A stretch of DNA of 64,000 nucleotides, from the NCBI GenBank assembly GCA_965277405.1, contig OZ255726.1, forward strand, positions 832,001-896,000, read 5' to 3'. Source of the stretch: Gammaproteobacteria bacterium. Its GTDB lineage: Bacteria > Pseudomonadota > Gammaproteobacteria > G965277405. The position numbers and the translations under genes were made by a program. The notes under the pieces are model-generated. The model was not told the DNA's origin. It worked only from the letters and a program-made list of their open reading frames with translations, and did not search any database. Below, piece by piece: positions 3,776 through 53,063 of the stretch; positions within the stretch are counted from its first letter, which is position 1; each line of letters starts with the position of its first letter.

Positions 3776-3788
3776 TATTGCACACTAA

Positions 3789-4073: not shown

Positions 4074-4154
4074 CTAACAAGCCACGCACTGCGGTTTATT
4101 TACACAGCAGTATACCTTGCTGCAACGCGTCTAAACAAATATCCACAGCCAAAT

Positions 4155-12587: not shown

Positions 12588-13054
12588 ATGCATCGTCTGA
12601 TTCATCCATGGAGCAAAAATGGCTGTGTTCGAACTGCGAATAAGGCGCTTTCCACTCTCTCACTCTGGCGGGATATTTTGCATGATATTGGTTCTGATAG
12701 TTTTGCACAAACCGGTGTTTTTGCTCTGGATAATGCGGATGTCAGTTACCAATCTGTCCAAGGTATTGATAACAGATTGTTATCTGCAACAACTGTTGGA
12801 GAATTGATGCCTTTGCTAGCAGGTGTTAATTGCGGTTATGCACACCATTTTCCCCAGTTTGGTGTTTTATTTGCGGATAAAATATTGACTGACCTTGTTC
12901 AATATCTTCGCAACAATGGCGTACAGTTGTACGAAGGGAGTGCTGTAGTGTCGATTGACGCGCAAAGGGCTGAAGTCTACTTTTCTGATGGAAAAATTGT
13001 AGCTGGGGACAACATTATCATTGCAGCGGGATACGGAGCGGATGCTATCGTTAG
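12588..13054 (+). pseudogene. FAD-dependent oxidoreductase (DAO/sarcosine oxidase-like) internal fragment, cut by IS5
   Basis: HRLIHPW, GVLFADKIL, DNIIIAAGYG; lacks the N-terminal GxGxxG; IS IR begins at 13055. Confidence 0.7.
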
Positions 13055-14302
13055 GGGAGATCTGATTAAGTCCCAAACAACAGCAATATCAGCTAGGAAG
13101 ATATACAATGGTGAATCTATTTGAATATTTGAATAAGCGGATAATCTTATGCAACAAACAACTTCTGCCGGTGCTGCATACGACCACAAGAAAGTAACAA
13201 CGAAACGTGAGAAATTCTTGCAGTTGATGGACAAATTAGCTCCATGGCAACAGTTGTTAGAGTTAATAGAACCGCATTATCCCAAGAAAGGGAATGGCCG
13301 CCCACCGATTAATATGCAGACCATGTTACGCATGTATTTTTTAAAGCAATGGTACAACTTATCAAACCCAGGGGTAGCAGAAGCACTATATGACATGGAA
13401 AGCATGCGGCGTTTTGCCCATATAGAGCTGATAGACGATGCCATCCCTGATGAAACTACCATCTTGAACTGGCCCGCAGGATCATACAAAAACATCAACT
13501 CAGCGTCAAGATACTTGCTGTGGTGAATGAGTATTGTATGGAAAATAATATAACAATCTCACCAGGGACGATGGTTGATGCCACGATCATCCATGCACCA
13601 TCATCTACGAAGAATAAAGAGAAAGCCCGTGATCCTGAAATGCAGCAAACAAGGAAAGGCAAGCAGTGGTATTTTGGCATGAAGATTCATATAGGAACTG
13701 ACGCTAATAGCAATATGATTCATAGCGCGGCAATGCCTACCACCACAGCCGCGGCCCACCACCACAGCCGCGAATGAAGCTGACATCAATGAACTCCCCA
13801 AATTGCTGCGTGAAACAGATAAGGTTATCTTTGCCGATGCAGGATATACGAGCGACAGTTATAAACGCGGCTCGCGTCACCTTGGGATAGATTGGCGCAT
13901 GAATGATAAACGTAAACCAAAGCAGCAAATGAGCGGCTCGCAGCGCCAACGCAATACACAGAATTCTAAGGTGCGCGCCCGGATTGAGCACTGTTTTCGG
14001 GTAATCAAATGTCAGTTTGGTTATAAGAAAGCTCGCTACAAAGGACTAGAAAAGAACCGAGTACAAGTATTTTCTTTGCTTGCATTGACGAACTTATACA
14101 TGCTGCGCGGACGACTAACAGGATAGAACCGCCCAAAATTCAAGAAAAACAGTAAAAAACAATAAAAACAGTAAAAAACAGTAAAACAGCAACACGAAGA
14201 TCAGCGAAATGATCAAATATTGACCATTGAAAATTATTGCTATTACTTTTTTGGAGTATATACGAGTTATTGGAGTATATGCGAGTCTTAATCAGAGCTT
14301 CC
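13055..14302 (+). mobile_element. IS5-family element, copy 1; transposase frameshifted (13149-14126)
   Basis: IRs GGGAGATCTGATTAAGTC / GTCTTAATCAGAGCTTCC; motifs [30 protein letters not shown]; flanks TTAG/CTAG. Confidence 0.95.
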
Positions 14303-14324
14303 CTAGGCAATACGACAACATGAT

Positions 14325-15212: not shown

Positions 15213-15341
15213 GGTGACTCCTCCTTTAATTATTTGCTTGCCGAATTTACTGTCTGTAGGTGTTGTTTCCAGCATATTACTGTTTCATTGTAGTCCTGCA
15301 ACGTAAGTTGGCAACATGCTAGCTTTCATGCCCTTGCTGAG

Positions 15342-15636
15342 GGAAGCTCCGATTAAGTCCATGACAGGCGAGACGGAGCAAAAACGCTGATGGCTGATGA
15401 TTGCAAGACGCAGTGCGCAGATAATACTGGTGGTCTTGTGGGTATTGCCAAGTGCTGCAACGACGTAGTACCGCTTTTTTCCCGTCATCTATTGAATATA
15501 TGATGGTTTGCGGCAGCGGTACTTGCTGTGTTGCATCCCTTGGCGTATAGCTGAGCATGCGCTCAGCAGTTTGCGCCTTGCAATCATCAGCAATTACAGG
15601 CAAACTCGCTCCATCAGCGAGTTAATCAGAGTTTCC
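15342..15636 (-). mobile_element. IS5-related MITE, copy 2
   Basis: Reverse-complement homolog of 3789-4073 with both IRs; flanks TGAG/TTAG. Confidence 0.9.
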
Positions 15637-15649
15637 TTAGCATTTACAC

Positions 15650-16099
15650 TTAGCGCTTATTTTTCCCATCATGGATTTTATGATTTTTATCGAGGATCAG
15701 CACGTAAATCATACTTTCATCAAAAAAACCATGAACGCGTAGAGTATCATTAAGTTGAAAGCTATAAAAACCTTCATCCTCTGAGGCAAGCGTTTCGCCA
15801 TCCATGGGTGGTCTTTGCTTTATCAATACACCTGGGACTTTTCCCTGATGCTTATGGCAATTACCAGAGTTTCGATATCCAGTTACTTCTTGGTTAGATG
15901 CTGTTCTTAACCACTTTACAAAGCACTTAGTTGATTTTTTATCCCATGCAGAAAGACACTCATGTTTTTCATCAAAATATCTAAAGGAGAATTCGCATTT
16001 TTTTTGCTTAACTTGAACTTGCTTCGTATCAAGATGATGCGTTGCTATGCTTTGTTCTGGGACACTAAACTGTTTGATTTCTTTGGAGTTCTTTTCCAT
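15650..16099 (-). CDS. Putative toxin (RelE-like / MAG6450-like) downstream of Panacea antitoxin
   Basis: FSFRYFD...YSFQLNDTLRVHGFFDESMIYVLILDKNHKIH pattern; overlaps the antitoxin 3' end. Confidence 0.55.
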   Translation of the reverse strand: MEKNSKEIKQFSVPEQSIATHHLDTKQVQVKQKKCEFSFRYFDEKHECLSAWDKKSTKCFVKWLRTASNQEVTGYRNSGNCHKHQGKVPGVLIKQRPPMDGETLASEDEGFYSFQLNDTLRVHGFFDESMIYVLILDKNHKIHDGKNKR

Positions 16100-16544
16100 A
16101 AAACATTTGCATAGATTCTTTAGAAATAACTTCGTTACACCTATCGTGCGGTAATAAATTTCCGCGAGCTGTTTGCCATGGATGTTCTATATGAGTTTTT
16201 TTTTCAAGGGCTTTAGCAGAAAATTGCCCGTACTCTTTATCAACCAAAGACAAAAAGCCCTTAATCTCTCCAGAGTTTATAGCTGGTGCATTATCAATTT
16301 TGGCAAGATGTTGCGACCAGTTTATACCTTTAAAGTGATGATACGCAGCTGTGCATACTGGACCATGAGCCCACGCCTCAAATTCTTCATCAATGAGCGG
16401 CTCATCAGTATTTGCCAAATGCCATGCTTGCGCATAATACATGAGCTTATGCAGCTTTAAGTGCGTAACGACATCGCCTGAATCTACATCACAACTCTCA
16501 ATAAACCAATTTGCTAAGGATTGCCAAGTTATATATTTGCACAT
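16065..16544 (-). CDS. Panacea-domain (DUF4065, SocA/GepA-like) antitoxin
   Basis: THLKLHKLMYYAQAWHL, FEAWAHGPV, LEKKTHIEHPW signature. Confidence 0.9.
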   Translation of the reverse strand: MCKYITWQSLANWFIESCDVDSGDVVTHLKLHKLMYYAQAWHLANTDEPLIDEEFEAWAHGPVCTAAYHHFKGINWSQHLAKIDNAPAINSGEIKGFLSLVDKEYGQFSAKALEKKTHIEHPWQTARGNLLPHDRCNEVISKESMQMFYGKELQRNQTV

Positions 16545-16639
16545 AATTACTCTCCGATTTTATCCCAATGTGCATAGGGCATGCCTATGCTTTTTTGCAG
16601 AATATCCATAATTTCATACAAAAGCAAAACAAAATGTAA

Positions 16640-16933
16640 GGAACATCCGATTAAGTCGTTGATGAGCGAGACGGAGAAAAAACGCTGATGGCTGATGATT
16701 CCAAGACGCAGTGCGTAGATAATACTGGTGGTCGTGGGTATTGCCAAGTGCTGCAACGACGTAGTATCGCTTTTTCCCAGTCCTCTATTGAAGATATGAT
16801 GGTTTGCTGCAGCTCAGCTTGCTGTGTTGCACCCCTTGGCGTATAGCTAGGTCATGCGCGCAGCGGTTTGCGCCTTGAAATTATCAGCAATTGCCAGCAA
16901 ACTCGCTCCATCAGCGAGTTAATCAGAGCTACC
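16640..16933 (-). mobile_element. IS5-related MITE, copy 3 (degenerate IRs)
   Basis: Homologous to copy 2 along its full length. Confidence 0.88.
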
Positions 16934-18253: not shown

Positions 18254-18289
18254 AGATGCCTAGTTATATTTACACTCTTGGAACTCTAA

Positions 18290-18600
18290 GGAAGCTCTGA
18301 TTAAGTCGCTGATGGAGCGAGTTTGCCTGCAATTGCTGATGATTACACGCAGCATTCCTTGGCGCAAGGCATAGCATATGCACCACGGAATGCAACACAG
18401 CGAGTACCGCAGCCGCAGACCATCATATAATATTGAACAGAGGTCGGGGAACAGATGTCGGGCAAAACGCTGCGCTAACGCTGTTGCCGCACTTATAATA
18501 GCCACTATAAATACCCACCAGTGTTATCATCGCACTGCGCATAAGTTATCATCAGCATTATTGCTCCGTCTCGCCCATCATGGAATTATTTAGAAATTCC
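18290..18600 (+). mobile_element. IS5-related MITE, copy 4
   Basis: Left IR perfect after CTAA; right IR degenerate (GGAATTATTTAGAAATTCC). Confidence 0.88.
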
Positions 18601-18644
18601 TTGACAATTGATTTACCATTTTTATTTAAGCATAGGATGATACA

Positions 18645-19376: not shown

Positions 19377-19544
19377 CGCGGTATTGCAGCAGGGTATGGC
19401 GCAGTCTGCTCCATACCCTCACTGGCTTTTTTTCAATCGGTCTAGATAGCGCCGTCCCCGCCCTGTCCATCTTGAGTGCACACCTGTGCAACTTACCAAC
19501 TTGATCTTGCTGGCGGATTAGCTGCAACAATGCTCTTGCGCTAA

Positions 19545-20805
19545 GGAAGTTCTGATTAAGTCGCTCATATACTCCAATAACTCTCATATACTCTAAGAAA
19601 GTAATAGCAATAATTTTCAATGGTCAATATTTGATCATTTCGCTGATCTTCGTGTTGCTGTTTTACTGTTTTTTACTGTTTTTATTGTTTTTTACTGTTT
19701 TTCTTGAATTTTGGGCGGTTCTATCCTGTTAGTCGTCCTCGCAGCATGTATAAGTTCGTCAATGCCAGCAAAGAAAATACTTGTACTCGGTTCTTTTCTA
19801 GTCCTTTGTAGCGAGCTTTCTTATAACCAAACTGACATTTGATTACCCGAAAACAGTGCTCAATCCGGGCGCGCACCTTAGAGTTCTGTCTATTGCGTTT
19901 GCGCTGCGAGGTGCTCATTTGCTGCTTTGGTTTACGTTTATCGTTCACGCGCCAATGTATCCCAAGGTGACGCGAGCCGCGTTTATAACTGTCGCTCGTA
20001 TATCCTGCATCGGCAAAGATAACCTTATCTGTTTCACGCAGCAATTTGGGGAGTTCATTGATGTCCGCTTCATTCGCGGCTATCGTGGTGGTGGGCCGCG
20101 GCTGTGGTGGTAGGCATTGCCGCGCTATGAATCATATTGCTATTAGCGTCAGTTCCTATATGAATCTTCATGCCAAAATACCACTGATTGCCTTTGCGGG
20201 TTTGATGCATTTCAGGATCCCGTTTTTTCTCTTTATTCTTCGTAGATGATGGTGCATGGGTGATCGTGGCAGCAACCATTGTCCCTGGTGAGATTATTAT
20301 ATTATTTTCCATACAATACTCATTCACCACAGCAAGTATCTTGACGCTGAGTTGATGCTTTTCTATGATCCTGCGGGACCAGTTCAAGATGGTGGTTGCA
20401 GCAGGGATGGCATCGTCTATCAGCTCTATATGGGCAAAACGCCGCATGCTTTCCATGTCATATAGTGCTTCTGCTACGCCTGGGTCTGATAAGTTGTACC
20501 ATTGCTGTAAAAAATAAATGCGTAACATGGTCTGCATATTAATCGGTGGGCGGCCATTCCCTTTCTTGGGATAATGCGGTTCTATTAACTCTAACAACTG
20601 TTGCCATGGAGCTAATTTGTCCATTAACTGCAAGAATTTTTTTTGGTTTCGTTGTTACTTTCTTGTGGTCGTATGCAGCACTGGCAAAAGTTGTTTGTTT
20701 CATAAGATTATCCGCTTATTCAAATATTCAAATATTCAAATAGATTCACCATTGTATATCTTTGTAGCTGATATTGCTGTTGTTTGGGACTTAATCAGAG
20801 ATTCC
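19545..20805 (-). mobile_element. IS5-family element, copy 2; transposase frameshifted
   Basis: Same IRs as copy 1; CTAA duplicated at 19541-19544 and 20806-20809. Confidence 0.95.
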
Positions 20806-20834
20806 CTAAACAACCTCCGTAGCATTTACACCTA

Positions 20835-21038
20835 GTGATCTGCCATAAATGCGGTTCTTCCGCAATCCGCATTTATGGAACTCGACCAAATGAAGCATTT
20901 GTGGAGCGGTGGCGCAAATGCTTAAGCTGTGATCATCGCTGGAAAACAGCGGAAGAAACCCATGGTGATGTAAAACGTTATACGTGTAAATCTCAATCCA
21001 CGCGGCCAACGCAGCAAGGATTATTTGATGCCAAGTGA
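20835..21038 (+). CDS. Small zinc-ribbon protein (NrdR N-terminal / Ogr-Delta-like), phage-associated
   Basis: CHKC...RWRKCLSC...WKTAE; duplicated at 40373-40576. Confidence 0.65.
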   Translation: MICHKCGSSAIRIYGTRPNEAFVERWRKCLSCDHRWKTAEETHGDVKRYTCKSQSTRPTQQGLFDAK

Positions 21039-22771
21039 AAGTGTTAATCTGTATATAGAAAAAACCATCCGTAGGGCGATAGTACGTCGTAGTGTCACCA
21101 TTTTCTTGTTAAAATACGATGCTGCTTTTGAGCGATTAACGACTGACTTAAAAGATATGTATACGCGGGCGTGGAGTGATACTGCCAAGAGTGGGATTGC
21201 CAGAGCTCTTGATGTAAGTCGTGATTTGGGGACGACAATCGCCAAGGAGGATATTGATGTTATCTATAAGGTATTGGCCAATGATTTAGGTGGCGATGCA
21301 ATGGTTGCGGCATTGCGCAAACCAATTATCAATCTGGGTGGTGCGTTGTATAAAAATAGGCGCCAAAGAAGTAGCGGTTGATATTGGTTTTCAAACTGTC
21401 GATTTTGATGCGCTAGAGCAAATCCATACTAGCAATCTGTTTTGGGTTGGGCAGCATTGGGACAGTCATACCAGCAAAATTATTAACAGCAAGTTAGATG
21501 CTTTATTTACCGACGGCATGACTCAACCGCAATTGGCCAAGGCTCTAGCGCACGGCTTAGCTGATGTCGTTGATAAAAGCAGTGCGTATTGGCATATGCT
21601 GGCAGATCATACTGCGACAAAAACCCGTGAGATGGGTCGAGTGACAGGCTATTAACGCGCTGGGATTCAATATGTAAAAGTACAGGCGTATCTAGACGAT
21701 AAAACGTCTGCGGTGTGCCGTGAATTGCACGGTACCATTATCCCAGTCACCCAATTAACACAACAACGCCATAGATATTTAGCTGCTACTAATAACAAAG
21801 ATGCCGATGCTGCAAAATCAGCTTGGAAAATGTTTAGTACCACAACTCCTGTCGATCACAGCGCAGGTTCACCACCGTATCATTTTAATTGCCGCACCAT
21901 CACGGTTGCGTATCAGCCAACAGGTGGTGGGCATTGGCAGCCAGAACAGACGACAACAGCGGCTACAAACCCTGTTGCGAGCTTTACAAACAGCAGTGAT
22001 CCAAAGCTCTACGAGCGTGAAGGTACAAAGGTGCGCGAGGGCATTTTCAACAGCAAAATGCGCAACGGTAAAACGTTCCTTGATGGGCTTGTCGATGTGC
22101 AAAACTCACAGGATTTTGCTAAATCAGGACAGCTATATATCGGCGAATTTCAAGAGCAGTTGTTGGCGCGATTAGCGGCAGTGCGTGGCATTAACAACGT
22201 GGCACTGGTGAAAGGTAACGGCAAAGGCGCGAAATTGGTGCGAGAAGCCTCGCAACGTTATCCAGATGACTGGACGGATAAGACCAATGAGCTGGGGGAG
22301 TTGAGTGCGAAAGCACTTAGTACTAGAGGGTACTATAGTAGATATCAGAATCTGATCGTAGCTAATAATCATCATACCGCAACGCACGAATATGCACATC
22401 ACCTGCAACGCGGTGTTCCAGAACTCGATAAAGTATTTCAATCAGTACATAAGCAACGCACGCGAGGAGATAAATTGGAAGCATTACGTACTGTGACTAG
22501 CATTACAAAATACGCGTGGTCTGAGGTTGCTCGCAAAGATGGATATTATGACCCGTATGTTGGACGAGAATATAGTAATGATCCTGATGCGCCTGCTCAA
22601 GAAGTGCTTACAATGTCTTTTGATAAACTTCTTGGTAAAGTCGACAAAGGTTCTACGCGGCAATCTGTACGACGCGCAGAGCATGATACTAAACTTTTTT
22701 TTGATTTTATCCGCATCGACCAGCCACTATTCGACACCGCACTCGGACTACTGTTTACATACAAACCATGA
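21025..22771 (+). pseudogene. MuF (SPP1 gp7-like head morphogenesis) protein with C-terminal HExxH domain, allele A; frameshift at A5 21352-21356 and in-frame TAA at 21653
   Basis: DDKTSAVCRELHG...PPYHFNCRT MuF signature; THEYAHHLQ; the TAA corresponds to CAA in the other copy. Confidence 0.8.
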
Positions 22772-23070
22772 AGAAATTATATAAGCTCAAGTCTATAGAC
22801 AAAGTCTATTTAGACGTTGAATTCACCTTTGATTATAAAATCCAACTCTTTTCTGGCAAAGATGCGTCCATGTTGCAAGATATGCTTGATGAGTCCAAAA
22901 AAAAAGGCTGGTACGAAGTACCACCGCCCACCTCTTTCATTAGATTGCCAGCTAAAGTAAATGAAGAAGACCTAGGGTATTTTTTAAGTTACCATTGGGA
23001 TGTTTTTGGTCAACTCTTACCAGACGATGAACACGCAGCTGCGGTACGCAGCAATGACATTGTCTACTAA
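22768..23070 (+). CDS. Small protein coupled to MuF allele A, putative immunity protein
   Basis: ATGA overlap with the MuF stop; 100 aa; divergent paralog at 38353-38652. Confidence 0.65.
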   Translation: MKKLYKLKSIDKVYLDVEFTFDYKIQLFSGKDASMLQDMLDESKKKGWYEVPPPTSFIRLPAKVNEEDLGYFLSYHWDVFGQLLPDDEHAAAVRSNDIVY

Positions 23071-23400
23071 ATCACAATCACATCATGGTTGCAAATCACA
23101 CCTAAAAAATACCATTTTTAAACAAGCTTTATCGTGCTGCAATAGCACGTTAAAATATCGCCTTTTCATCACGTTTTTTAACGTAAAAATATCGTTTTTT
23201 AAACACGCTTTTTTACGTTAAATTTTACGTTTTTGCAAAGCAGTAATCCCCGTAAAACCTCGATAAACGCTACAATTATTGCCGAAGAGTGCACAAAACG
23301 GAAGCAAACGGTAATAATTCCCCTACCATCCTACAACCTAAGCGCCATAAGGGATTCACGCTACAACCCGCATAAAATCAACAAATTTGCTCAACTGTAG

Positions 23401-23449
23401 AGTCTCATTTATTGACAACTTACAGTCTCATTTATTCCCATCCCCCCTA
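23401..23449. repeat. Two AGTCTCATTTATT direct repeats ending in CCCCCCTA; possible transposable-phage end
   Basis: Repeats at 23401-23413 and 23424-23436; also present in the right arm. Confidence 0.45.
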
Positions 23450-24152
23450 TTAGTGCGTCCAAAACATAGAAAATTCAGCAAAAATGCATGAAAGACAATA
23501 AAAAATGAATAAAAACAGCTTCTCAATCCTGGTCAAGAGCAAAAACAGGATGAAGAGCTGCAGCTACAAATGTGGTGTTTGTGTGATGTTACGACAGAAA
23601 CCGCGACTGTGTATCCATCTCTTCTATACAGTATTAATGTCCCGTATAAAAAAAACAGGGAATACAGGGGCACAACGTTCAGAGCAAAGACGCAAATTAA
23701 ATGCGGCACTGATGAAGCGCTAAAGAGCGTATGATGAATACTAAATGTCTCAATTTGCAAGCAAAACTACATAACAGTCAGTCAAATTTCCTGCCATTGC
23801 GGGCTGCAAACGGGTTGCTATTAACTACAAGGAGTTGAAAACACTCAGAAAATAGCGGTACCTATACGTAGTGTTTGCTCTAAATCGCAACAAGTATACC
23901 AGACCAGCAGGCAGGTATGGCACCCTTGGCGACGATATAACACAACACCGATTGTATATACAAAATAGTTTTGTTGTATATAATATACGGATAGTGTGTA
24001 ACAACAATACAAACTCACTATGTGATGTGTTGTAGTTATTCATTTATTCAAATACTGGGTATTCCTAGTAATTATAGCAACAAGAATGTGACTATCATTG
24101 ATATTGTTGCTTTACAAACTTCGCTGTATATGCGAGGAGAATGGAGTAAATC

Positions 24153-24650
24153 ATGAGTAATAAATTAGTATTAGATCGCTATGATCGTAGAATTCTCGCC
24201 CACCTTAAAGACAACGCCAGAATCCCTATTGCGCATATTTCACGCAGCATTGGGCTTTCAAGAAGTGCTGTCAATCAACGGTTAAGTAAGCTAGAAGATT
24301 TAAGGGTTATCCGTGGCTATCACACAATTTTTGGCAATACCAATGTTGCTCGTACCATCGATGCCTTCATTACCATTAAGCTCGGTGGATTAGAGTTTGA
24401 TACATTTAAGCGCAAATTGCTTGATATAAGCGAAGTGTATGCAATTTATCATGTCAGTGGATTTTTTGATGTGTTGTTGCATGTCCAAGTTGATGAAATC
24501 GAACAGATTAACCGTGTTCGTGACTTTCTTGTCAAAAACCTTATCCACCATGAAAATCACATAGATATTCATGCGGTTATCAGCACCACGATGGTCAAGC
24601 ATTTGGCACAGCATCAAGACAAAAATTTTGATGATTTGTTTCTTGACTGA
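24153..24650 (+). CDS. Lrp/AsnC-family transcriptional regulator, copy 1
   Basis: LDRYDRRILAHLKDNARIP, IGLSRSAVNQRLSKLE, VSGFFD. Confidence 0.92.
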   Translation: MSNKLVLDRYDRRILAHLKDNARIPIAHISRSIGLSRSAVNQRLSKLEDLRVIRGYHTIFGNTNVARTIDAFITIKLGGLEFDTFKRKLLDISEVYAIYHVSGFFDVLLHVQVDEIEQINRVRDFLVKNLIHHENHIDIHAVISTTMVKHLAQHQDKNFDDLFLD

Positions 24651-24665
24651 TAACTCAATTGTAGC

Positions 24666-24714
24666 TCTGCATCGGCAAGTTCAGATTACGTTGCTGATGC
24701 AGATGCGTTTTGTT
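24666..24714 (+). terminator. Putative terminator hairpin after lrp
   Basis: TCTGCATCGGCAA/TTGCTGATGCAGA stem followed by a T-rich tract. Confidence 0.4.
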
Positions 24715-24738
24715 GGCTTGCAAGCGCTGCATGAATGA

Positions 24739-25129
24739 AGACAACTGCAATACCCTCTCATTTTTTGCTTTGAAGCGTGGGAAATCGTAAATTGGGTGTT
24801 TCTACTAAAAAAACACAGAATGCGCCGAAAATGGTGCATATATGCCCATTTATCCGGTCTTTTTTGGTCCTATTTCCCACCATTTAAGAGCAATACTGCT
24901 GCTGTTGTTGATATAAGTTGCGATCCCTTTTCAAGTTATACGCCATTGCCTTCAACCTCAGCATCGACTTTGGCTATGCCAAGATATCGTGCGCTGGAGA
25001 CCATACACCCTTGTCATTGTGGCGAAAGTTCGCTCGACTACAAATTTGATGATGTCAGCCTTTTGCCAGTGTGGCATTTGTTTACCGCGTGGCTTTTTCC
25101 GCATAATTCCATCATCAATGTGCTTATCA
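24739..25129 (-). mobile_element. IS1106-like (IS5 family) 3' remnant
   Basis: Homologous to 33720-34121 and 36317-36718; end AAGACAACTGCAATACCC. Confidence 0.75.
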
Positions 25130-25180
25130 TGTAGCAGCGCATTTGGTTTACGAACTTTCTGTACTGGTTTGCGGAAACGG
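25130..25180. mobile_element. Putative Mu-like prophage terminus
   Basis: IS homology stops exactly at 25129 and TGTAG begins; repeated TGGTTT(A/G)CG; next to Dam and tail genes. Confidence 0.5.
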
Positions 25181-25225: not shown

Positions 25226-25995
25226 CTACCAATTCCAGATCAGTAGCCCTTTGGCTTGGCTGCCCTTGCGCCCACCCATTGTGTATCTAATGCCAAGAGA
25301 ACGCATGGACAGACCCTCGCAAGCAGCTCTCATCTCTGGAATATCGTTGACCGATATAATCATTCTGCCTTGAACAATTCGGGCCAGCTCTGCCATCAGT
25401 TTGTATTGTTCCAGCCCAAAGTCCATGCCATAACTGGCTGTGCCCCAGTAAGGGGGATCAAGGTGAAACAGTGTACCCTCCCGATCATATTTCTTCACAC
25501 AATCGGGCCAGTCAAGATGCTCGATATAGACTCTGTCCACCCGCAGGTGCGCGGTGAACAGATCTTCCTCAATCCGCAGCAGGTTGAGCTTGGGAGGACT
25601 GACTGCCGAGGTGCCGAAAGTCTGACTGGATACTTTACCACCAAACGCCATCTTCTGGTGGTAGTAGAAGCGGCTAGCGCGTTGGATATCGGTCAGGGTT
25701 TCCAGGGTTGGATGTCTTCTGCCAGAGGTACTCCCAACGGCTGACCAGAGCCCATTTGCAAGGCCTTAAAAACTCCTCTAAATGGTGTTTAACGACCCTA
25801 TAAAGGTTCACCAGTCCGCCGTTGCAGTCGTTCAGAACCGCGACGGATGATTCCAGTTTGTAAAAGAATATGGCAGCTCCGCCACAGAACGGTTCCACAT
25901 TGGTTTTGTGCACCTTAAATAGAGGTAGTATTTCCTTGGCTAGGCGTCTTTTGCCGCCCATCAAGGGGATAATTGGTTGTGGTCTCAACGTGAAC
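25226..25995 (-). pseudogene. Phage-type DNA adenine methylase (D12 class), frameshifted near 25700
   Basis: MGGKRRLA, VEPFCGGAA, NDCNGGLVNLY in one frame; FHLDPPY in another. Confidence 0.85.
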
Positions 25996-26137
25996 ATCCT
26001 TAATATTTTTGATAAGCTCACCCATGCCGTGTTCACGGTGGGGAATACTTGGTTGGTTCACGGTACTTTTGCTACCGTGGCTTGACGACCACTTTAGGTG
26101 CTGCTGTACCTTTGGTGGTCGCTTTCTTTTTTTTCTC

Positions 26138-26808
26138 TTAGCGTTTCGGTGTTTCTGCCTCCACGCTGGTGCTGTACCCGCTGTCGCTGAATTCGTGATT
26201 GACTTGAGTCACTACCCAGTCACCCGCCACGCCGGTTCTGAATCCTGATAATGTCACCTTGGCTTCTGCTGCTAAGAGTGGGTTTCCCTGTTTCAATGTC
26301 ACACTGGCGGTGGCCAGACCACGGTTGAGAGCATCCAGCTTGCCTTGCGCGGCAGCTCTGGCAGTTTCAGCATCCTAGTAGTTATGGCGCAGGGTATAAA
26401 CTGGTTTGCTGTCTCCCACTCGCACTGGTGTACGGGTACCTGTTGCTGTGTTGTGCCAGTGAGCCAGCACGGTTGCATATTTACCTCGATCAGCCATGGT
26501 TATTCGATGGTCGCTGGTTTGGTTGCGGCTGATGACCACTGCTGGAATTGTCTTGCCAGTAGCGCTTTTAGCTTCACCTTTCTGGACAAACAGCAAAAAG
26601 CCTCCGACAGGCTTAGCTACGGCGTCATATTGCTTGGCTAGCCGTGTCAACAGATGCAGATCGGACTCTTCGGTTTGATCCAGATGGGGAAGGTTGGTCG
26701 CACTATCAATTTTCCGACACTTGATTCCAGTTGATGTTCAGCCGCGATGGTACTGACCAGATTGTTAATGGTGATGTCATCCCAGGAGCGGGTTTTGTGC
26801 TCCTTTAA
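26138..26808 (-). pseudogene. Phage late-control D / tail hub protein fragment
   Basis: KTRSWDDITI, HLDQTEESDLHLLTRLAKQYDAVAK, LSGFRTGVAGDW...GYSTSVE; internal stop; 5' end removed at the IS boundary. Confidence 0.8.
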
Positions 26809-26839
26809 CAGGCTGTTGAAAAACACACCCCTTCCTTAA

Positions 26840-28068
26840 GGAAGCTCTGATTAAGACTCGCATATATTCCAATAACTCGCATATACTCCAAAAAAGTAAT
26901 AGCAATAATTTTCAATGGTCAATATTTGATCATTTCGCTGATCTTCGTGTTGCTGTTTTACTGTTTTTTACTGTTTTTATTGTTTTTTACTGTTTTTCTT
27001 GAATTTTGGGCGGTTCTATCCTGTTAGTCGTCCTCGCAGCATGTATAAGTTCGTCAATGCCAGCAAAGAAAATACTTGTACTCGATTCTTTTCTAGTCCT
27101 TTGTAGCGAGCTTTCTTATAACCAAACTGACATTTGATTACCCGAAAACAGTGCTCAATCCGGGCGCGCACCTTAGAGTTCTGTGTATTGCGTTGGCGCT
27201 GCGAGGTGCTCATTTGCTGCTTTGGCTTGCGTTTATCATTCACACGCCAATCTATCCCAAGATGACGCGAGCCGCGTTTATAACTGTCGCTCGTATATCC
27301 TGCATCGGCAAAGATAACCTTATCTGTTTCACGCAGCAATTTGGGGAGTTCATTGATGTCAGCTTCATTCGCGGCTGTGGTGGTAGGCATTGCCGCGCTA
27401 TGAATCATATTGCTATTAGCGTCAGTTCCTATATGAATCTTCATGCCAAAATACCACTGATTGCCTTTCCTTGTTTGATGCATTTCAGGATCACGGGCTT
27501 TCTCTTTATTCTTCGTAGATGATGGTGCGTGGATGATCGTGGCATCAACCATCGACCCTTGTGAGATTGTTATATTATTTTCCATACAATACTCATTCAC
27601 CACAGCAAGTATCTTGACGCTGAGTTGATGTTTTTCTATGATCCTGCGGGCAAGTTCAAGATGGTAGTTTCAGCAGGGATGGCATCGTCTATCAGCTCTA
27701 TCTGGGCAAAACGCCTCATGCTTTCCATGTCATATAGTGCTTCTTCTACCCCTGGGTCTGTTAAGTTGTACCATAGCTGTAAAAAATAAATGCGTAACAT
27801 GGTCTGCATATTAATCGGTGGGCGGCCATTCCCTTTCTTGGGATAATGCGGTTCTATTAACTCTAACAACTGTTGCCATGGAGCTAATTTGTCCATTAAC
27901 TGCAAGAATTTTTCACGTTTTGTTGTTACTTTCTTGTGGTCGTATGCAGCACTGGCAAAAGTTGTTTGTTTCATAAGATTATCCGCTTATTCAAATATTC
28001 AAATAGATTCACCATTGTATATCTTTGTAGCTGATATTGCTGTTGTTTGGGACTTAATCAGAGATTCC
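26840..28068 (-). mobile_element. IS5-family element, copy 3; transposase frameshifted
   Basis: Both IRs; ORFs 27636-27974 and 27016-27603. Confidence 0.95.
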
Positions 28069-28072
28069 CTAA

Positions 28073-29292
28073 GGAAGCTCTGATTAAGACTCGCATATAC
28101 TCCAAGAACTCGCATATACTCCAAAAAAGTAATAGCAATAATTTTCAATGGTCAATATTTGACGATTTCGCTGATCTTCTGTTGCTGTTTTACTGTTTTT
28201 TACTGTTTTTTACTGTTTTTCTTGAATTTTTGGCGGTTCTATCCTGTTAGCCGTCCTCGAAGCATGTACAAGTTCGTCAATGCAAGCAAAGAAAATACTT
28301 GTACTCGGTTCTTTTCTAGTCCTTTGTAGCGAGCTTTCTTATAACCAAACTGACATTTGATTACCCGAAAACAGTGCTCAATCCGTGCGCGCACCTTAGA
28401 GTTCTGTGTATTGCGTTGGCGCTGCGAGCCGCTCATTTGCTGCTGTGGCTTGCGTTTATCATTCACACGCCAATCTATCCCAAGGTGACGCGAGCCGCGT
28501 TTATAACTGTCGCTCGTATATCCTGCATCGGCAAAGATAACCTTGTCTGTTTTACGCAGCAATTTGTGGAGTTCATTGATGTCCGCTTCATTCGCGGCTG
28601 TGGTGGTAGGCATTGCCGCGCTATGAATCATATTGCTATTAGCGTCAGTTCCTATATGAATCTTCATGCCAAAATACCACTGATTGCCTTTGCGGGTTTG
28701 ATGCATTTCAGGATCCCGTTTTTTCTCTTTATTCTTCGTAGATGATGGCGCATTGATGGTCGTGGCATCAACCATTGTCCCTTGTGAGATTATTATATTA
28801 TTTTCCATACAATACTCATTCACCACAGCAAGTATCTTTACGCTGAGTTGATGTTTTTCTATGATCCTGCGGGCCAGTTCAAGATGGTGGTTTCATCAGG
28901 GATGGCATCGTCTATCAGCTCTATCTGGGCAAAACGCCGCATGCTTCCCATGTCTACAGTGCTTCTGCTACGCCTGGGTCTGATAAGTTGTACCATTGCT
29001 GTAAAAAATAAATGCGTAACATGGTCTGCATATTAATCGGTGGGCGGCCATTCCCTTTCTTGGGATAATGCGGTTCTATTAACTCTAACAACTGTTGCCA
29101 TGGAGCTAATTTGTCCATTAACTGCAAGAATTTTTTTTTGTTTCATTGTTACTTTCTTGTGGAAAGTATGCAGCACTGGCAAAAGTTGTTTGTTTCATAA
29201 GATTATCCGCTTATTCAAATATTCAAATAGATTCACCATTGTATATCTTTGTAGCTGATATTGCTGTTGTTTGGGACTTAATCAGAGATTCC
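28073..29292 (-). mobile_element. IS5-family element, copy 4; multiple frameshifts
   Basis: Both IRs; separated from copy 3 by only CTAA. Confidence 0.95.
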
Positions 29293-30662
29293 TTAATAAG
29301 GTATAATGTTTCTTTTCCTGAGATAATTCGATACGAGGAACTGATTTCACCCAAGCTAGAATGTTCAGCACCCTATCGCTGCAAGCGCAGTACCCCAAAA
29401 TCACCCAATTCTCCATATCAAGAAAATGGTCGATGTGGCGTTGTAGGAGATGAAGGGCCACTTCAATACTTTGTATGCCCCAAGCTGACGAGCAGGCATA
29501 CCACTAGAAAAATTATTGCGTGCCCAGTTGTTGATAGTGCTTATCACGATCCGCAGCGAACGTGCGTTGATGGAGCAAATTGGCTATAACCTGATGTTCC
29601 GTTGGTTTGTCGGTTTTTGTATGGATGATGGTATTTGGAATCACTCAACCGTCACCAAAAACCGCGATCGTCTTCTTGCGGGAAATACTGCTGTTAAGTT
29701 TTTCATTCGCATCAAACAACAGGCTGAAACAGCAGGTCTTCTTGCAGACGAACATTTCAGTGTGGATGGAACATTGCTTCATGCGCTGGCATCAGTGAAA
29801 AGCTTCCACAAGCAAGACGACGATGACCACAATTATGGCAGCAGCAACAAACGGATTGATTTCAAAGGCAAGAAACGCCACCGCGCTACCCACCAATCTA
29901 CCACAGATCCCGAAGCGCGCTTTGGCAAGAAAAGCCAAGCCCAAGCGGCAATACCATGTTAGGTGGGCAATATTATGATTGAGAACCGCAATGGTTTGGT
30001 GGTAGACGCACATAGCAAACAGTTCAGCGGCACCGCTGCAACCGATGCTGCGATACCGATGCTGCGATAAAAATGCTTGCCAATATTCCAAGAAATCCCC
30101 AAGTGACATTGGCAGCGGACAAGAAATACGACACCAAAGGCCTTGTCAAGCAATGCCAAGCAATGGCAAGCAATGCCGTGAATTGAGCGTAACGCCCCAC
30201 GTTGCGCAAAACACAGCAAAACGAAGTTCATCAATAGATCAACGAACGACGAGACACCGCGGGTAGCAAACCAGCCAAAAAGTACGCAAACGCATACAAG
30301 AAGTCTTTGGCTGGGCTAAGACTATTGGTGGACTTTGCAAAGGAAAGTATGCGGCTAATAGCAAAGTGAACCATCAATTTGTATTCACCATGGCCGCGTA
30401 TCACTTGCTACGCATGCGCAATCTTGGTGCTGTATCATGCTGATTTGCAACGTCGGCGGACAGCCCACGCCCAACAATTGGAAACGTGGTAGTTTCACAC
30501 GGAATACCACCAAAATCCGCCCTAATAACAGCTGCTGTGCGCTAAAAAATCAATTTTGGCAGTCTTGAGGCTTATATTATACGATAAATTTTCAACAGCC
30601 TGTTAATACGCGTAGCGCATGCATAAAAATGGCGGGATTAAACAAATACTATGGCGATAATC

Positions 30663-31927: not shown

Positions 31928-32751
31928 CTATTTACTCCGTTTCTGCGCGGTGATTAGCCAACGTACACGGTCTAAGCCACGCGAGATAATGCGGATGATA
32001 GCTGCACTAATAGCTGACACTAACGCTTTAGTTGCAGTGATTTTACCGCTGAAATGTTTATAAATAATTACTGCAGGAATAGCGAAGCCAACCCCCATTG
32101 TGGCTAGCAAGGCTTCAGCAATACTTAGTGTGACCACCGCAAGATTAGTGGTCTTAGATTGAGCAATACCAATACAGCTATTCATAATTTCCAAACGCTA
32201 CCGAACAAGCCGACGCCCTACCAGTAGTTGCGTCAATCAACGTAGTCGCTGCGTCACTGCGACTAATCATTCGCCACATGGCTGAGATATTGCCGAGCAT
32301 ATTCTTGTTGGTATCTTGTTACTAGTTAGCTTCTTTAGGGAAGCTCTGATTAAGTCCATGATGGGCGAGACGCAAAAAAAACGATGATGAAACTTAAGCG
32401 CAGCACTTGATAATACTGGTGGTATTATCAAGTGCTGCAACGACGTTAGCGCTGCGTTTTTTCCCGTCCTTCTATTGAATATACTTTGGGTTTGCGGCAG
32501 CGGCACTTGCTGTGTTGCATCCCTTGGCGTATATGCTACGGCATGCGGCTTGCATTCATCAGCAATTGGCATCAAACTCGCTCCATCAGCGACTTAATCA
32601 GAGCTTCCTTGGATAGGTGTGCTGTACTAGCTAGGGGGGATAGTTGCCAACAGTTCATGGGTTTATGCAGCAAGTTAAATAAACAATTTTGCAGTTGTTG
32701 ATCAAGTTGTGCTGCATCGGTATGGATACGGTGCGTGTTTTGATTCTTCAT
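31928..32751 (-). pseudogene. exbB: Degenerate exbB interrupted by a MITE
   Basis: C-terminal IMNSCIGIAQSKTTNLAVV..IAEALLAT matches the intact exbB at 34237; ATG 32751 with GAGGAG upstream; internal deletions and stops. Confidence 0.7.
32339..32608 (-). mobile_element. IS5-related MITE, copy 5 (270 bp)
   Basis: Perfect IRs; flanks TTAG/TTGG. Confidence 0.92.
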
Positions 32752-32928: not shown

Positions 32929-34121
32929 AAGACAATTGCATTAACATATATTTGCTTAGAAAACATTTGTATTCCTCATTACTCAGAAAATCATCGTATG
33001 CGGAGGATTAACAGGTCAAAATCTTAGTTTTATGATGCTTTGGGAGGAAATTCCCTGTTGTGAACTTGATTGTTTGGCAGACCACATACATTGGCAAGGC
33101 CTGCGCCAACACCTGCGTATTGTGGCTGGAGACAATAGTCAGTATGTTTACAATACTGTTATTACTAACTCTTATTACCAAAATGGTACAACTTAGCGGA
33201 TGAAGCAGTGAGCCATGCAGTTGCTCACGGTTTAGTTTGAATGCAGTTTGGTAATTTTACTCTTGCAGGCAGCTGACGCGACAATGTGTGTCCGCTTGCG
33301 GAAAAAGGCAAACACATAATCTTTTCAAAGCCCTCCTTGATAGCAGCATGCCATTGAACAGCAAGGCTTACAACTTAGCAATGGTAATATGTATCGGCGG
33401 CTTACGTTGCTACAAAGTGCTAGTCGGCCACGCCAGATGCTAGCGAGTACGCATTAGCGAATGGAATATATGCAACAGGAAAGGTTAAATATACCGATGA
33501 TGTTGCTGCGTCATCGATGAGCAAAGGTGATAAGTTGCCGTATGGTTATAGCACTACTGTTGTCACAGATGAACATGGCGTTATCTGTTGCTACGCATGC
33601 GGCGCATCCCAGCGCGATGGGTAGATTTGCAGATGATATAGCAGGTAGCTCCTAATCAAAGCCGGACAAACGCTTGTGTATGACCAGGGAGCTACCAGCA
33701 AAACCAAGCAAGCAAATCTAGGTGATAAGCAAATTGATGATGGCATTATGCGGAAAAAACCACGCGGTAAAGCAATGCCACACTGGCAACAGGCTGGTAA
33801 CAAGTTGAAATCATCAAAACGCTTTGTGGTCGAGAGAACTTTCGCCACCATGACAAGGGTGTATGGTCTCCACCGCGCGCGCTATCTTGGCATAGCCAAA
33901 CCATGCTGAGGTTGAAGGCAATGGCGTATAACTTGAAAAGGGCTAGCAATTATAGCAACAACAGCAGCAGTATTGCTCTTAAATGCTGGGAAATAGGACT
34001 AAACAAGCCCTGATAAATGGGCATATACGCGCCATTTTCAGCACTTTCTGCGTTTTTTTAGTAAAAATCTCCAATTTTTACTCATCAAAGCAAAAAATAA
34101 TGGGGGGACTGCAGTGGTCTT
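32929..34121 (+). mobile_element. Degenerate IS1106-like element (IS5 family)
   Basis: Ends AAGACAATTGCA / TGCAGTGGTCTT; remnants LLLPKWYNLADE, GIMRKKPRGK, RFVVERTF..RARYLG, LKAMAYNLKRA. Confidence 0.78.
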
Positions 34122-34236: not shown

Positions 34237-35271
34237 TTACTCGGCTGCAGTAACGTTGATAGGTGGTATTTTGTTCAGCGCATGGTGAATTTCACGGTCT
34301 AAGTCACGTGAGATAAGCCTCATAACAGCTGCACTAATATCTGAGACTAAGGCTTTAGTTGTAGATATTTTACGGGTGAAATGATTGTAAATTACTACCG
34401 CTGGAATAGCGGCGACAAGCCCCATTGCTGTGGCGAGCAAGGCTTCAGCAATACCTGGTGCTACCACCGCAAGATTAGTGGTATTAGATTCAGCAATACC
34501 AATAAAGCTATTCATAATTCCCCAAACGGTACCGAACAAGCCGACAAATGGCGAGACAGAACCAATGGTGGCGAGCAGCCCTGTTCCTATGATGATTTTA
34601 CGAGCAGTTGCGACTTCAATTCTTGAGAGACTAGAAGCAACGCGTACTTTGATGCCTTCTGTGCTGACATCTGTATTAGCAAGGTCGGCAGATAGACGAA
34701 GTTCATCATTAGCGGCATCGACTAAACCTCGGGCAATACCATTGATAGCGTGGTTGTTTTCAGCATCAGTTAATGCTCTGGTTTGCAGCAGTTGAGTTAA
34801 ATTATTGCGTAAGTGACGTTGCAAACTGGTGAATTCGATAGATTTAGACAGTAATACCGTCCAAGTTAATAGTGACGCAACAGCTAAGGCAATCATCACC
34901 GTTTTGACAACCCAGTCTGCCGCGAGAAACATCCCCCAAGGAGATAGATTATGCGGGATGGTCGGGTCTAGTTCTGCTGCAAGATGCTCGTCTAATCCAG
35001 TTGTTTCGCTAGGATGTAATTCTGCTCGTTCATTATCGTTAGTCGCATCATCACTTGCATTTTCAGCGGCGCTGTCCGTGGTGTTATCACTGAGTGATGG
35101 TGTAGCTGGCGCAGTCTCTGCTGCAGTATTGACTGGAGCATCAGCATGGCTTGGTTGATCCGATTGGTTGTCAGCATGAATATCTGCGGAAAACAACACG
35201 CTTACAGCCAATATTATTAATAACAAACAATAATTAACTTTAGACAACAAAAGATATGGGTGAAGATTCAT
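34237..35271 (-). CDS. exbB: ExbB with an extended acidic N-terminus
   Basis: LSPWGMFLAADWVVK, LATIGSVSPFVGLFGTVWGIMNSF, VVAPGIAEALLATA. Confidence 0.93.
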   Translation of the reverse strand: MNLHPYLLLSKVNYCLLLIILAVSVLFSADIHADNQSDQPSHADAPVNTAAETAPATPSLSDNTTDSAAENASDDATNDNERAELHPSETTGLDEHLAAELDPTIPHNLSPWGMFLAADWVVKTVMIALAVASLLTWTVLLSKSIEFTSLQRHLRNNLTQLLQTRALTDAENNHAINGIARGLVDAANDELRLSADLANTDVSTEGIKVRVASSLSRIEVATARKIIIGTGLLATIGSVSPFVGLFGTVWGIMNSFIGIAESNTTNLAVVAPGIAEALLATAMGLVAAIPAVVIYNHFTRKISTTKALVSDISAAVMRLISRDLDREIHHALNKIPPINVTAAE

Positions 35272-35339
35272 GATATTTAAGATCCTATAGTTGGGGTGAG
35301 TAGCGGTTGTGGATAAAGTTAGATACGGCAACCAGATAG

Positions 35340-35400
35340 GGAAGATCTGATTAATTCCATGCTGAGCGAGACGGAGAAACAACACTGATGATAACTTAAG
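35340..35400 (-). mobile_element. Truncated MITE end
   Basis: GGAAGATCTGATTAATTCCATGCTGAGCGAGACGGAG matches the MITE right end. Confidence 0.75.
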
Positions 35401-35633
35401 TGATCTCTGAATAATTCTCTACTATTTAATTTTCTACACGCAGCAATGCTCAATAACAATAAACCCAGCGGCTGAGCATCGATGCTTGTTCACGTTTATT
35501 GTTGTTGCTGTGCTGTTGCTGAATTTCCCGTTGTTTGGACGCACTAACCCTGTGGTTGCGGTAAATATTTATGACTGCGCACTAGGTTAGTAAGCCAAGC
35601 TAGCATGTATAGTCGGTTGGTATTCTTCGCTTA

Positions 35634-35930
35634 GGAAGCTCTGCTTAAGTCGCTGATGAAGCGAGTTTGCCTGCAGTTGCTGATGATTGCAAGGAGCAAA
35701 CCGCAGGCGCATGCCATAGCATATTCGCCAAGGGATGCAACACAGCAAACGTAATCAATTGCCGCAAATCATCATATATTCAACACAACGGCGGGAAAAA
35801 AGCGGTGCTAACTTCATTGCAGTACTTGGCAATACACACAAAGTCACACCAATTTTAACTGCGCACTGCGCTTAAGTTTCATCAGCGTTGTTGCTTAGTC
35901 TCGCCCATTAAGGAATTAATCAGAGGCTCT
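35634..35930 (+). mobile_element. IS5-related MITE, copy 6
   Basis: Homologous to copy 1; IRs partly degenerate. Confidence 0.88.
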
Positions 35931-36718
35931 TTAATAGCAGCATTCCATTGAACGTCAAGGCTTCAAACTTAGCAATGCCAATATGTATCAGCGGATTACG
36001 TTGCTACAAAGTGCTCGTCGTCCACGCTAGATGCAATCGAGTATGAATTAGCGAATGGAACATATGCAACAGGAGAAGTTGCATATACCGATGCTGTTGC
36101 TGCGTCATCGTTGAGCAAAGGTGATAAGTTGCCGTATGGTTATAGTGCTACTGTGGTAACAGATGAACATGGTGATATCTGTTGCTACGCATGCGGCGCA
36201 TCCCAGCGCGATGGGCAGGTTTGCAGATGATATAGCAGGTAGCTCCTAATCAAAGTCGGACAAACGCTTCTGTATGACAAGGGATCTGCCAGCAAAGCCA
36301 AGCAAGCAAATCTAGGTGATAAGCACATTGATGATGGAATTATGCGGACAAAGCCACGCGGTAAAGCACACACTGGCAAAAGATTCGTAACAAGCTGATA
36401 TCATCAACACGCTTTGTGGTCGAGAGAACTTTCGCCACAATGAAAAGCGTGTACGGTCTCCAGCGCACGATATCTTGGCATAGCCAAAGTCGATGCTGAG
36501 GTTGAAGGCAATGGCGTATAACTTGAAAAGGGCTCGCAATTATATCAACAACAGCAGCAGTATTGCTCTTAAATGGTGGGAAATATGACCAAAAAAGACC
36601 AGATAAATGGGCATATATGCGCTATTTTCGGAGCATTCTATGTTTTTTTAGTAGAAACACCCAATTTACGATTGCCCACGCTTCAAAGCAAAAAATGAGA
36701 GGGTATTGCAGTTGTCTT
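35931..36718 (+). mobile_element. IS1106-like remnant, 5'-truncated at the MITE
   Basis: Direct repeat of ~33340-34121. Confidence 0.8.
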
Positions 36719-36805
36719 CATTCATGCAGCGCTTGCAAGCCAACAAAACGCATCTGCATCAGCAACGTAATCTGAACTTGCCGATGCAGAGCTACAATTG
36801 AGTTA

Positions 36806-40576: not shown

Positions 40577-40579
40577 TAG

Positions 40580-53000: not shown

Positions 53001-53017
53001 CTGACGCTTCCCTAGAT

Positions 53018-53046
53018 CGGCCATCATGGACTTAATCATAGCTTCC
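53018..53046 (+). mobile_element. Isolated MITE right end
   Basis: CCATCATGGACTTAATCATAGCTTCC. Confidence 0.7.
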
Positions 53047-53063
53047 TAAAGTTATCAGCCAAT

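Follow-up and report, generated by a model that had tools for sequence, protein, structure and literature searches.

Two inverted arms carrying broken MuF-zincin genes and diverged, intact partner genes in a gammaproteobacterial chromosome, a putative decayed member of the MuF-metallopeptidase toxin class

We analyzed a window of 64,000 nucleotides from a gammaproteobacterial genome (GCA_965277405.1, contig OZ255726.1, positions 832,001 to 896,000 of the forward strand). "The window" means this whole stretch, and positions are counted from its first letter. It contains a unit of about 4.3 kb in two inverted copies, arm A and arm B (Table 1). Each arm carries a broken gene for a MuF-type protein with a zincin-like C-terminal tip, followed by an intact gene for a protein of about 100 residues that we call the partner. 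On balance, we think that the arms are probably remnants of a decayed prophage that carried the now-broken MuF-zincin gene and its coupled partner. The intact relatives would encode a capsid-delivered protease with an immunity-like partner. The comparisons below partly support, as a working hypothesis, placing the locus as a decayed, multiallelic member of the known MuF-metallopeptidase toxin class.

The two arms are nearly identical except for one block. This pattern was claimed in a preliminary description made from the sequence alone, which placed the start of the block after the residues LGELSA (about 22310), and alignment bears it out. We aligned arm A against arm B with MAFFT and calculated identity in 60-nt windows and in segments, with gaps excluded. 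Identity is 57 to 68% in the block and mostly 98 to 99.8% in the flanks. Flank and core differ strongly (Fisher p = 9e-80), so that divergence along the arms is strongly nonuniform; the uniform divergence that the description had named as speaking against its reading was not seen. A repeat finder paired 20831-22309 with 39102-40580 (1,479 nt, 98%), and paired the collinear pieces 23130-23580, 23610-24013, 24011-24916, and 24918-25044 with 36413-38326. The block begins directly after the LGE(L)SA codons and ends about 55 nt beyond the partner stop. It spans the 3' part of the MuF gene, with the HExxH domain, and the entire partner gene. A shoulder of intermediate divergence lies ahead of it (88.8%), and another lies on its 3' side (93.0%). 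Within the block, the tip core and the partner core are separated by a better-conserved junction, which takes in the final 19 codons of MuF and the opening 22 of the partner.

The window gene is supported as encoding a MuF-type protein, borderline by curated thresholds, in agreement with the preliminary description. The 490-aa open reading frame (ORF) of arm B matched Phage_Mu_F (PF04233) with an E value of 2.2e-6 and 28.8 bits, just under the cutoff of 29.6. It matched the SPP1 gp7 family (TIGR01641) with 36.7 bits, below the cutoff of 39.65. Matches to the PHROG minor head and head morphogenesis families ranged from E 1.7e-10 to 1e-7. The close relatives P0019 and P0048 clear the Pfam cutoff for PF04233. 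Of 7,999 proteins scored in a database search, 50 reached E <= 0.001, mostly with 30 to 44% query coverage, and the closest have only the N-terminal MuF part in common with the window protein.

Both MuF genes are pseudogenes. The two copies have in common a frame shift of one base, in a run of five A, that severs an N-terminal ORF of 118 aa. The intact relatives P0070 and P0071 read through this site in one frame. Both alleles are broken, and not allele A alone, because the frame shift is common to both. The extra stop noted earlier in allele A is present as well, as a TAA codon where allele B has CAA.

The tip is the last approximately 190 residues of the MuF protein. It contains an HExxH motif and a Glu about 65 residues downstream. 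The two motif variants were as first described, with HEYAH in allele A and VHEYGHH in allele B (39009-39029). A region search gave 10 further proteins with homologous tips, and a genome scan gave 19 loci. H66, E67, H70, and E135 are invariant in an alignment of 18 tip sequences. The AlphaFold2 (AF2) model of the tip had a predicted local distance difference test score (pLDDT) of 92.1 and a predicted template modeling score (pTM) of 0.88. It places HExxH and E135 on helices 61-75 and 134-145. Every named top fold match of the tip was a zincin: the anthrax lethal factor catalytic domain, Pro-Pro endopeptidases, the Bacteroides putative metallopeptidase BACCAC_01431, and ArdC. We call the tip a predicted zincin-like, gluzincin-type metallopeptidase domain of an unnamed family. 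The earlier assignment to a metallopeptidase type thus holds by the invariant H, E, H, and E, with activity as a prediction. Window proteins searched against Pfam, including ATLF and the toxin metallopeptidase families, gave no match on the tip at E <= 0.1. Weak ATLF-like matches were confined to other tips: P0004 and P0033, two relatives of the window MuF N-terminal part that we examined, carry another HExxH region at their ends, with such a signal. A PDB sequence search with the tip profile gave a chance-level match alone (E 1.2). All tips found were on MuF-type proteins, whose N-terminal sequences are dissimilar, in searches that were limited by length windows and not aimed at other delivery families (Rhs, CdiA, and the type VI secretion system, among others).

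The partner genes overlap the MuF genes by 4 nt in both pairs, and the ORF coordinates thus uphold the ATGA coupling noted earlier. The partner alleles A and B are 49% identical (43/87). A single-sequence search of 1.84 billion representatives gave three matches: an allele-A-like protein, one true relative of 103 aa, and one repeat artifact. A partner-profile search of a large protein set gave 18 clusters, none named and none with a Pfam domain. A search of the ESM Atlas with the partner gave no usable match. As far as searches of protein sets and the literature show, the partner family is unnamed. The AF2 model of the partner had a pLDDT of 90.9. In 31 of 39 distinct family members, the C terminus is a hydrophobic residue followed by Y, F, N, or H, and it follows an acid-rich stretch (D plus E, 25%, versus 13% elsewhere in the protein). 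The ends of the window partners lie at 23056-23067 (A) and 38356-38367 (B).

The tip and the partner are one conserved, co-inherited cassette. In all 19 related loci, a same-strand ORF of 103 to 119 aa has its start at -29 to +19 nt relative to where the MuF-zincin ORF ends (loci L018 and L019 contain only the end of the MuF gene). These ORFs align with the window partners. A profile built from the 19 locus partners alone, searched against 1,480 window frames, retrieved exactly the two window partners (E 8.5e-9 and 4.7e-8) and nothing else at E <= 10. A tblastn and profile search of the rest of the window found no orphan tips or partners. Pairwise identities of tip and partner across 18 taxa were correlated (Mantel r 0.885; none of 5,000 permutations as high). 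The partner diverges faster than the tip, with a mean identity of 30% versus 49% in the same 18 taxa.

The cassette rides on dissimilar MuF scaffolds, because the N-terminal part of the window MuF protein had no tblastn match (E <= 1e-3) in the 19 loci or in two phage loci. This placement is as expected of a mobile tip, judged by sequence comparison. The zinc-ribbon and Lrp genes of the window unit were not found in the related loci. Only the cassette, and not the whole unit, is therefore common to these loci. The four annotated loci lie in Mu-like head modules, where the gene order is a Mu gp27-like or other small terminase, the large terminase, the portal, the MuF-zincin, the partner, and then a G-like morphogenesis protein or a Mu-like protease.

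The tip is present in 17 of 50,697 phage records, which form three groups. Flavobacterium phage pippi8-1 encodes a MuF "structural protein" (gp028) followed by an overlapping gene for 70 aa (gp029). Streptococcus pyogenes 315.3-type prophages (13 records) encode SpyM3_1120 followed by an overlapping ORF of 77 aa. Planktothrix phage PaV-LD is the exception, and its gene after the tip encodes a virion structural protein of 384 aa. The small ORFs of 315.3 and pippi8-1 show no detectable homology to the partner, and they likewise end in IY.

The tips A and B belong to one family, and they are homologous, with 72 of 125 residues identical in the tip core. A third tip, allele C, occurs on the same 2.17-Mb chromosome in P0073. 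This protein has 351 aa and starts at the same residue as the last fragment of allele A. Tip C also occurs in P0070, an intact protein of 579 aa from a related genome. P0071 and P0074, from two related contigs, are 413-aa forms that end just ahead of a PDDWT motif. Two partner variants, P0061 (one residue from A) and P0089 (80% identical to B), are apparently on the contigs of the truncated MuF genes P0074 and P0071. The three tips are 58 to 62% identical (72/125, 74/127, and 77/124). Their pre-tip parts are 94 to 99.5% identical (185 to 195 of 196 residues), and all three diverge right after LGE. The Lrp-like arm protein has several near-identical variants (a cluster of 6). The 4.3-kb unit is thus probably present in three or more copies, given the third tip allele and the Lrp variants. 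Tips of a single family set on a conserved delivery part, with a sharp break between, match the layout of polymorphic toxin systems.

The preliminary description had proposed that dN/dS of the arms be computed. The proportion of synonymous differences (pS) between A and B was 0.71 in the tip core, which is saturated, and the ratio of nonsynonymous to synonymous change (dN/dS) was 0.19. For the partner, pS was 0.79 and the nonsynonymous proportion (pN) was 0.37. Values of dN/dS for the block were about 0.19 to 0.22. The last 27 MuF codons encode identical protein with 7 synonymous differences. Saturated synonymous sites and a dN/dS near 0.2 mark the block as an old divergence under purifying selection, and they led us to reject the idea that tip and partner went through a burst of positive selection. 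The claim of co-diversified protease and putative immunity variants holds to the extent that tip and partner each form one family and are co-inherited. It does not hold as a recent burst. Between A and B, residues are conserved in the HExxH helix (11/15 identical), in the Glu helix (11/12), and in the final helix (13/13). Identity falls to 8 of 23 residues in the three strands that precede the HExxH helix, and the loops 104-112 and 146-153 are variable. On the model, this pattern would fit a change of specificity at the cleft rim, and equally the ordinary faster drift of surface elements.

The preliminary description also held that the tips were exchanged by recombination. Such exchange is indistinguishable from gene conversion that homogenized the flanks, and two histories explain the pattern equally well: a foreign tip and partner may have been imported by recombination in the LGE region, or duplication and gene conversion may have homogenized all but the diverged block. 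The common frame shift, and the apparent sharing by allele C of the truncation point of allele A, favor a history in which the flanks are still being converted. In their intermediate identity, the shoulders resemble the ends of old conversion tracts. Most likely, the arms contain old tip and partner alleles, and duplication or gene conversion made the flanks of the copies alike.

We propose an immunity-like mechanism by analogy with characterized MuF toxins and ejected MuF proteins. In an intact phage, the MuF part would lodge the protein in the capsid. The MuF-zincin would then enter the infected cell along with the phage DNA, and the zincin would cut a cytoplasmic target there. The co-produced partner would bind and block the protease in the producing or lysogenic cell, as an immunity-like inhibitor. 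In the window, neither protease gene is functional any longer, and the partners could be either still in use or idle. MuF proteins lie inside the capsid. The accessible text of PMC12323379 describes gp44 of phage 80alpha as an ejection protein. That of PMC11699363 describes the MuF toxins Apk2 and Bxa as neutralized by adjacent small immunity proteins. The available parts of Jamet 2017 (PMC5576092) report a metallopeptidase domain in 20% of 191 putative MuF toxins and an ORF of <150 aa after 89.4% of MuF toxins. Table S4 of that study lists the 315.3 protein (NP_795514.1) as MuF3, "zinc metallohydrolase," toxin = yes. The kind is therefore already known. The window tip may be counted as a toxin-type domain only by distant homology to this 315.3 protein.

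Several observations weigh against an immunity-like pair delivered by a phage. Both MuF genes in the window are broken. The unit is outside a head module, and no portal or terminase adjoins it. The correlation of tip and partner is not in itself proof of interaction, because the genes are adjacent and linkage alone would be expected to produce it. PaV-LD has no small ORF after the tip. The small ORFs of 315.3 and pippi8-1 show no detectable kinship to the partner family (E 0.18 and no match, respectively). The partner has no fold relative in the PDB (best E 1.4) or BFVD (best E 0.3), and its fold therefore gives no pointer to an inhibitor role. Neither tip nor partner is matched by a Pfam, NCBIfam, or PADLOC family. 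The zincin fold matches from Foldseek are weak, with a best E of 0.037, a probability of 0.72, TM scores of 0.33 to 0.47, and 0 of 250 matches at E <= 0.001. One tip homologue, P0057, does not have the catalytic Glu.

A passive relic is a real, if somewhat improbable, explanation of the arms. They would then be two old paralogous copies of a dead prophage pair in an inverted duplication. Gene conversion would keep the similar parts alike and stall at the diverged block, and the tips and partners would now be idle, with the partners intact by chance. The common frame shift and the shoulders agree with this, and the start of P0073 at the same point as the post-stop fragment of allele A suggests that inactivating changes were copied between units. 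The genome is also rich in decayed insertion sequence (IS) copies and split genes. With 1 to 2 disruptions per 1.74-kb MuF gene, about 0.2 to 0.35 would be expected per 0.3-kb partner, and intact partners are unremarkable. The preliminary description had taken them as kept after toxin loss. Both partners are indeed intact, but this claim has no statistical support, and both MuF copies are broken. The partner is approximately 6-fold smaller as a target than the MuF gene (300 nt versus 1.74 kb), so its survival next to a broken MuF gene does not tell the readings apart. Against mere persistence, the divergence of the alleles accrued under purifying selection on both genes. The partners P0061 and P0089 are intact in related genomes, on contigs with truncated MuF genes, and a related genome has the intact allele-C protein P0070.

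We regard as doubtful a different role for the intact relatives, in which a virion-delivered zincin processes its own polypeptide or cuts host defense proteins and the partner is a chaperone or packaging adaptor. In the accessible text of Iyer 2017 (PMC5512222), MuF is a hub domain fused to effector domains, zincin-like metallopeptidases (MPTases) are the commonest domain, and autoprocessing or postinjection action is predicted. The same source ties these MPTases to lethal factor by profile search, and lethal factor was the best fold match here. The available parts of Jamet 2017 (PMC5576092) suggest that peptidase tips may be only "moderately toxic" and could help against cellular defenses. 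In the annotated loci, the partner is always within the late head operon. An assembly helper, however, would not be expected to diverge faster than its client or to be missing in PaV-LD. The single effector domain found here also differs from the 2 to 15 domains of polyvalent proteins. Still less can be said for continued expression of allele B, which we consider very unlikely. The frame shift would have to be a homopolymer sequencing error, or be bypassed by frameshifting, so that full-length MuF-zincin is made. It does fall in a run of five A, and allele B is otherwise open over its full length. The run is short, however, and the zero-frame codon after the slip site is neither a stop nor obviously rare, so a programmed frame shift is unlikely. 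The shift is also common to both copies, the gene is called in pieces in the public record (P0001 and P0072), and allele A additionally has an unambiguous nonsense codon.

A decayed prophage pair of the MuF toxin kind, which we continue to prefer, can be compared with several known systems. The closest is the MuF3 toxin of S. pyogenes 315.3. It has a MuF N terminus, a C-terminal HExxH domain homologous to the window tip (tblastn E 4e-7, 25% identity over 90% of the query), and a small ORF that overlaps its stop by 4 nt. It differs in its MuF subtype and in its small ORF, which has no detectable kinship to the window partners. Phage 315.3 is temperate and complete; the window copies, by contrast, are broken and duplicated and do not lie in a head module. 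Best structural matches to the tip were M34 peptidases (the lethal factor catalytic domain and PPEP-1/2/3), which have the same HExxH...E arrangement. The match is weak, however (E 0.037 to 1, TM 0.3 to 0.47), and the window proteins have no Pfam ATLF match at E <= 0.1. Colicin E DNase/Im and CdiA-CT/CdiI pairs have homologous enzyme tips about 60% identical, each with a co-diverged small protein, a conserved delivery part, and a sharp break. The window pairs have no sequence or fold relation to them and another delivery route.

Like the MuF toxins in the available parts of Jamet 2017 (PMC5576092), the window units have a small downstream ORF of <150 aa, here of 100 and 99 aa with a 4-nt overlap. 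Unlike those, the window unit is outside a packaging or head module; its relatives (4 of 4 annotated loci and two isolated phages) are within one. Apk2, a (p)ppApp synthetase, and Bxa, an ADP-ribosyltransferase, share with it a MuF head-module protein, an enzymatic C-terminal domain, and an adjacent small gene, as far as the accessible text of PMC11699363 describes them. The window tip is an unrelated, predicted enzymatic domain, and its toxicity and neutralization would follow by analogy. The zincin-like MPTases of polyvalent proteins in Iyer 2017 (PMC5512222) are likewise HExxH plus Glu zincins linked to MuF, predicted to travel with DNA, and related to lethal factor at the profile and fold level only. 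The window protein differs in having a single effector domain, and a conserved small partner does not figure in the accessible text of that description.

MuF toxins are a described yet barely tested class. The characterized tips in the available portion of PMC11699363 are only the (p)ppApp synthetase and the ADP-ribosyltransferase, and in the literature searched we found no study of a metallopeptidase MuF tip or its immunity. The window locus and its 19 relatives provide a clean, testable pair. It consists of a compact zincin with a confident model and a strictly syntenic small partner, and there are three natural alleles. Should the partner prove to be an inhibitor, it would represent a new type of protease inhibitor and would show the purpose of such phage-delivered proteases. 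A further idea, which we think unlikely, is that the partners are a new family of dedicated inhibitors of virion-delivered zincins. Their conserved acidic tail would enter the active-site cleft, with allele specificity determined by the variable beta-sheet rim of the protease. Long after the prophages had decayed, the host genome would retain three or more tip and partner alleles that do not cross-react, and these would serve as a lasting repertoire of immunity to related phages. For annotation, both MuF genes are pseudogenes in a repeat that is able to invert the approximately 11 kb between the arms.

Table 1. Features of the two arms and of their surroundings, in window coordinates
Feature	Position	Strand	Remarks
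Arm A	20831-25130	+	Zn-ribbon gene, broken MuF-zincin gene, partner, about 1 kb without ORFs of note, Lrp/AsnC regulator
Arm B	36317-40580	-	Same gene set as arm A, inverted
MuF allele A, fragment 1	21025-21381	+	118 aa; ended by common frame shift at A-run 21352-21356
MuF allele A, fragment 2	21290-21655	+	Ended by TAA 21653-21655 (CAA in allele B)
MuF allele A, fragment 3	21713-22771	+	352 aa; end of MuF domain, linker, zincin tip A
MuF allele B, fragment 1	40030-40386	-	118 aa; same frame shift, A-run 40055-40059
MuF allele B, fragment 2	38649-40121	-	490 aa; MuF domain, linker, zincin tip B (HEYGH 39012-39026)
Zincin-like tip domain, allele A	22199-22768	+	HEYAH 22385-22399; predicted third zinc ligand Glu 22601-22603, position from alignment
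Partner, allele A	22768-23070	+	100 aa; ATGA overlap with MuF
Partner, allele B	38353-38652	-	99 aa; 4-nt overlap with MuF
NrdR-type zinc-ribbon protein, 67 aa	20835-21038	+	PF22811, E 3.7e-8; identical copy 40373-40576 (-)
Lrp/AsnC-type regulator	24153-24650	+	Copy 36806-37303 (-) in arm B
Diverged block	22310-23123	+	Arm A; counterpart approximately 38330-39101 in arm B; MAFFT identity profile
Arm A segment	20870-22069		Identity 99.8% (1197/1200)
Arm A segment	22070-22309		Identity 88.8%
Arm A segment	22310-22714		Identity 67.5%
Arm A segment	22715-22834		Identity 84.2%
Arm A segment	22835-23123		Identity 57.1%
Arm A segment	23124-23600		Identity 93.0%
Arm A segment	23601-25040		Identity 98.3%
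IS5-family copies (DUF772 + DDE_Tnp_1)	13048-14310, 19537-20809, 26832-28075, 28065-29296, 40890-41997		63-100% identity
Dispersed intergenic repeats	3773-4080, 15333-15636, 16631-16933, 18274-18607, 32330-32608, 35331-35390, 35618-35937, 52990-53053		

Other genes of the unit were the zinc-ribbon and Lrp/AsnC genes. The NrdR-type zinc-ribbon gene is immediately upstream of MuF in both arms. In another organism, a single protein, P0042, combines the same type of ribbon with a MuF domain; this suggests that the two are linked in function in this particular MuF subtype. The stretch of about 1 kb in each arm contained no credible ORFs, and an Rfam scan of 19000-42500 gave no family.

Prophage debris adjoins arm A (25226-26650). 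It contains a D12/phrog_56 DNA methyltransferase in two ORFs and two tail-protein fragments (phrog_52), which cover profile positions 344-436 and 463-514 of 677. The debris is truncated by an IS copy. Most of the IS5-family copies have split or truncated transposase ORFs, and two of them flank the outer arm ends. An IS copy searched against plasmids, and the arm searched against phages, gave no match. Between arm B and an IS5-like copy, the octamer ATACTCCA is repeated about 24 times in a perfect tandem array (40623-40806), and weaker copies occur at 20671-20809. The array yields long artifactual ORFs in several frames. It may be a slippage-prone junction or part of an IS end.

The approximately 11 kb between the arms contains TonB/ExbB/ExbD genes. 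Direct repeats of 87 to 90% identity (33333-34077 versus 35927-36667 and 32099-32195 versus 34429-34525) lie around an exbB-like gene (34237-35385). They overlap the inner end of arm B, a second exbB fragment is upstream, and the region is a local TonB/ExbB/ExbD duplication. The window also contains dispersed intergenic repeats of 60 to 130 nt, with 62 to 90% identity and in both orientations. They resemble repetitive extragenic palindromic (REP) sequences or miniature inverted-repeat transposable elements (MITEs) and fall in families D9-D14, D17, and I25. An overlapping pair on the minus strand (15650-16544) encodes a SocA/Panacea-domain protein (PF13274, E 1.4e-19; phrog_1281) and a 149-aa protein (phrog_8366). 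Panacea is an annotated antitoxin domain, and this pair may be a toxin-antitoxin pair.

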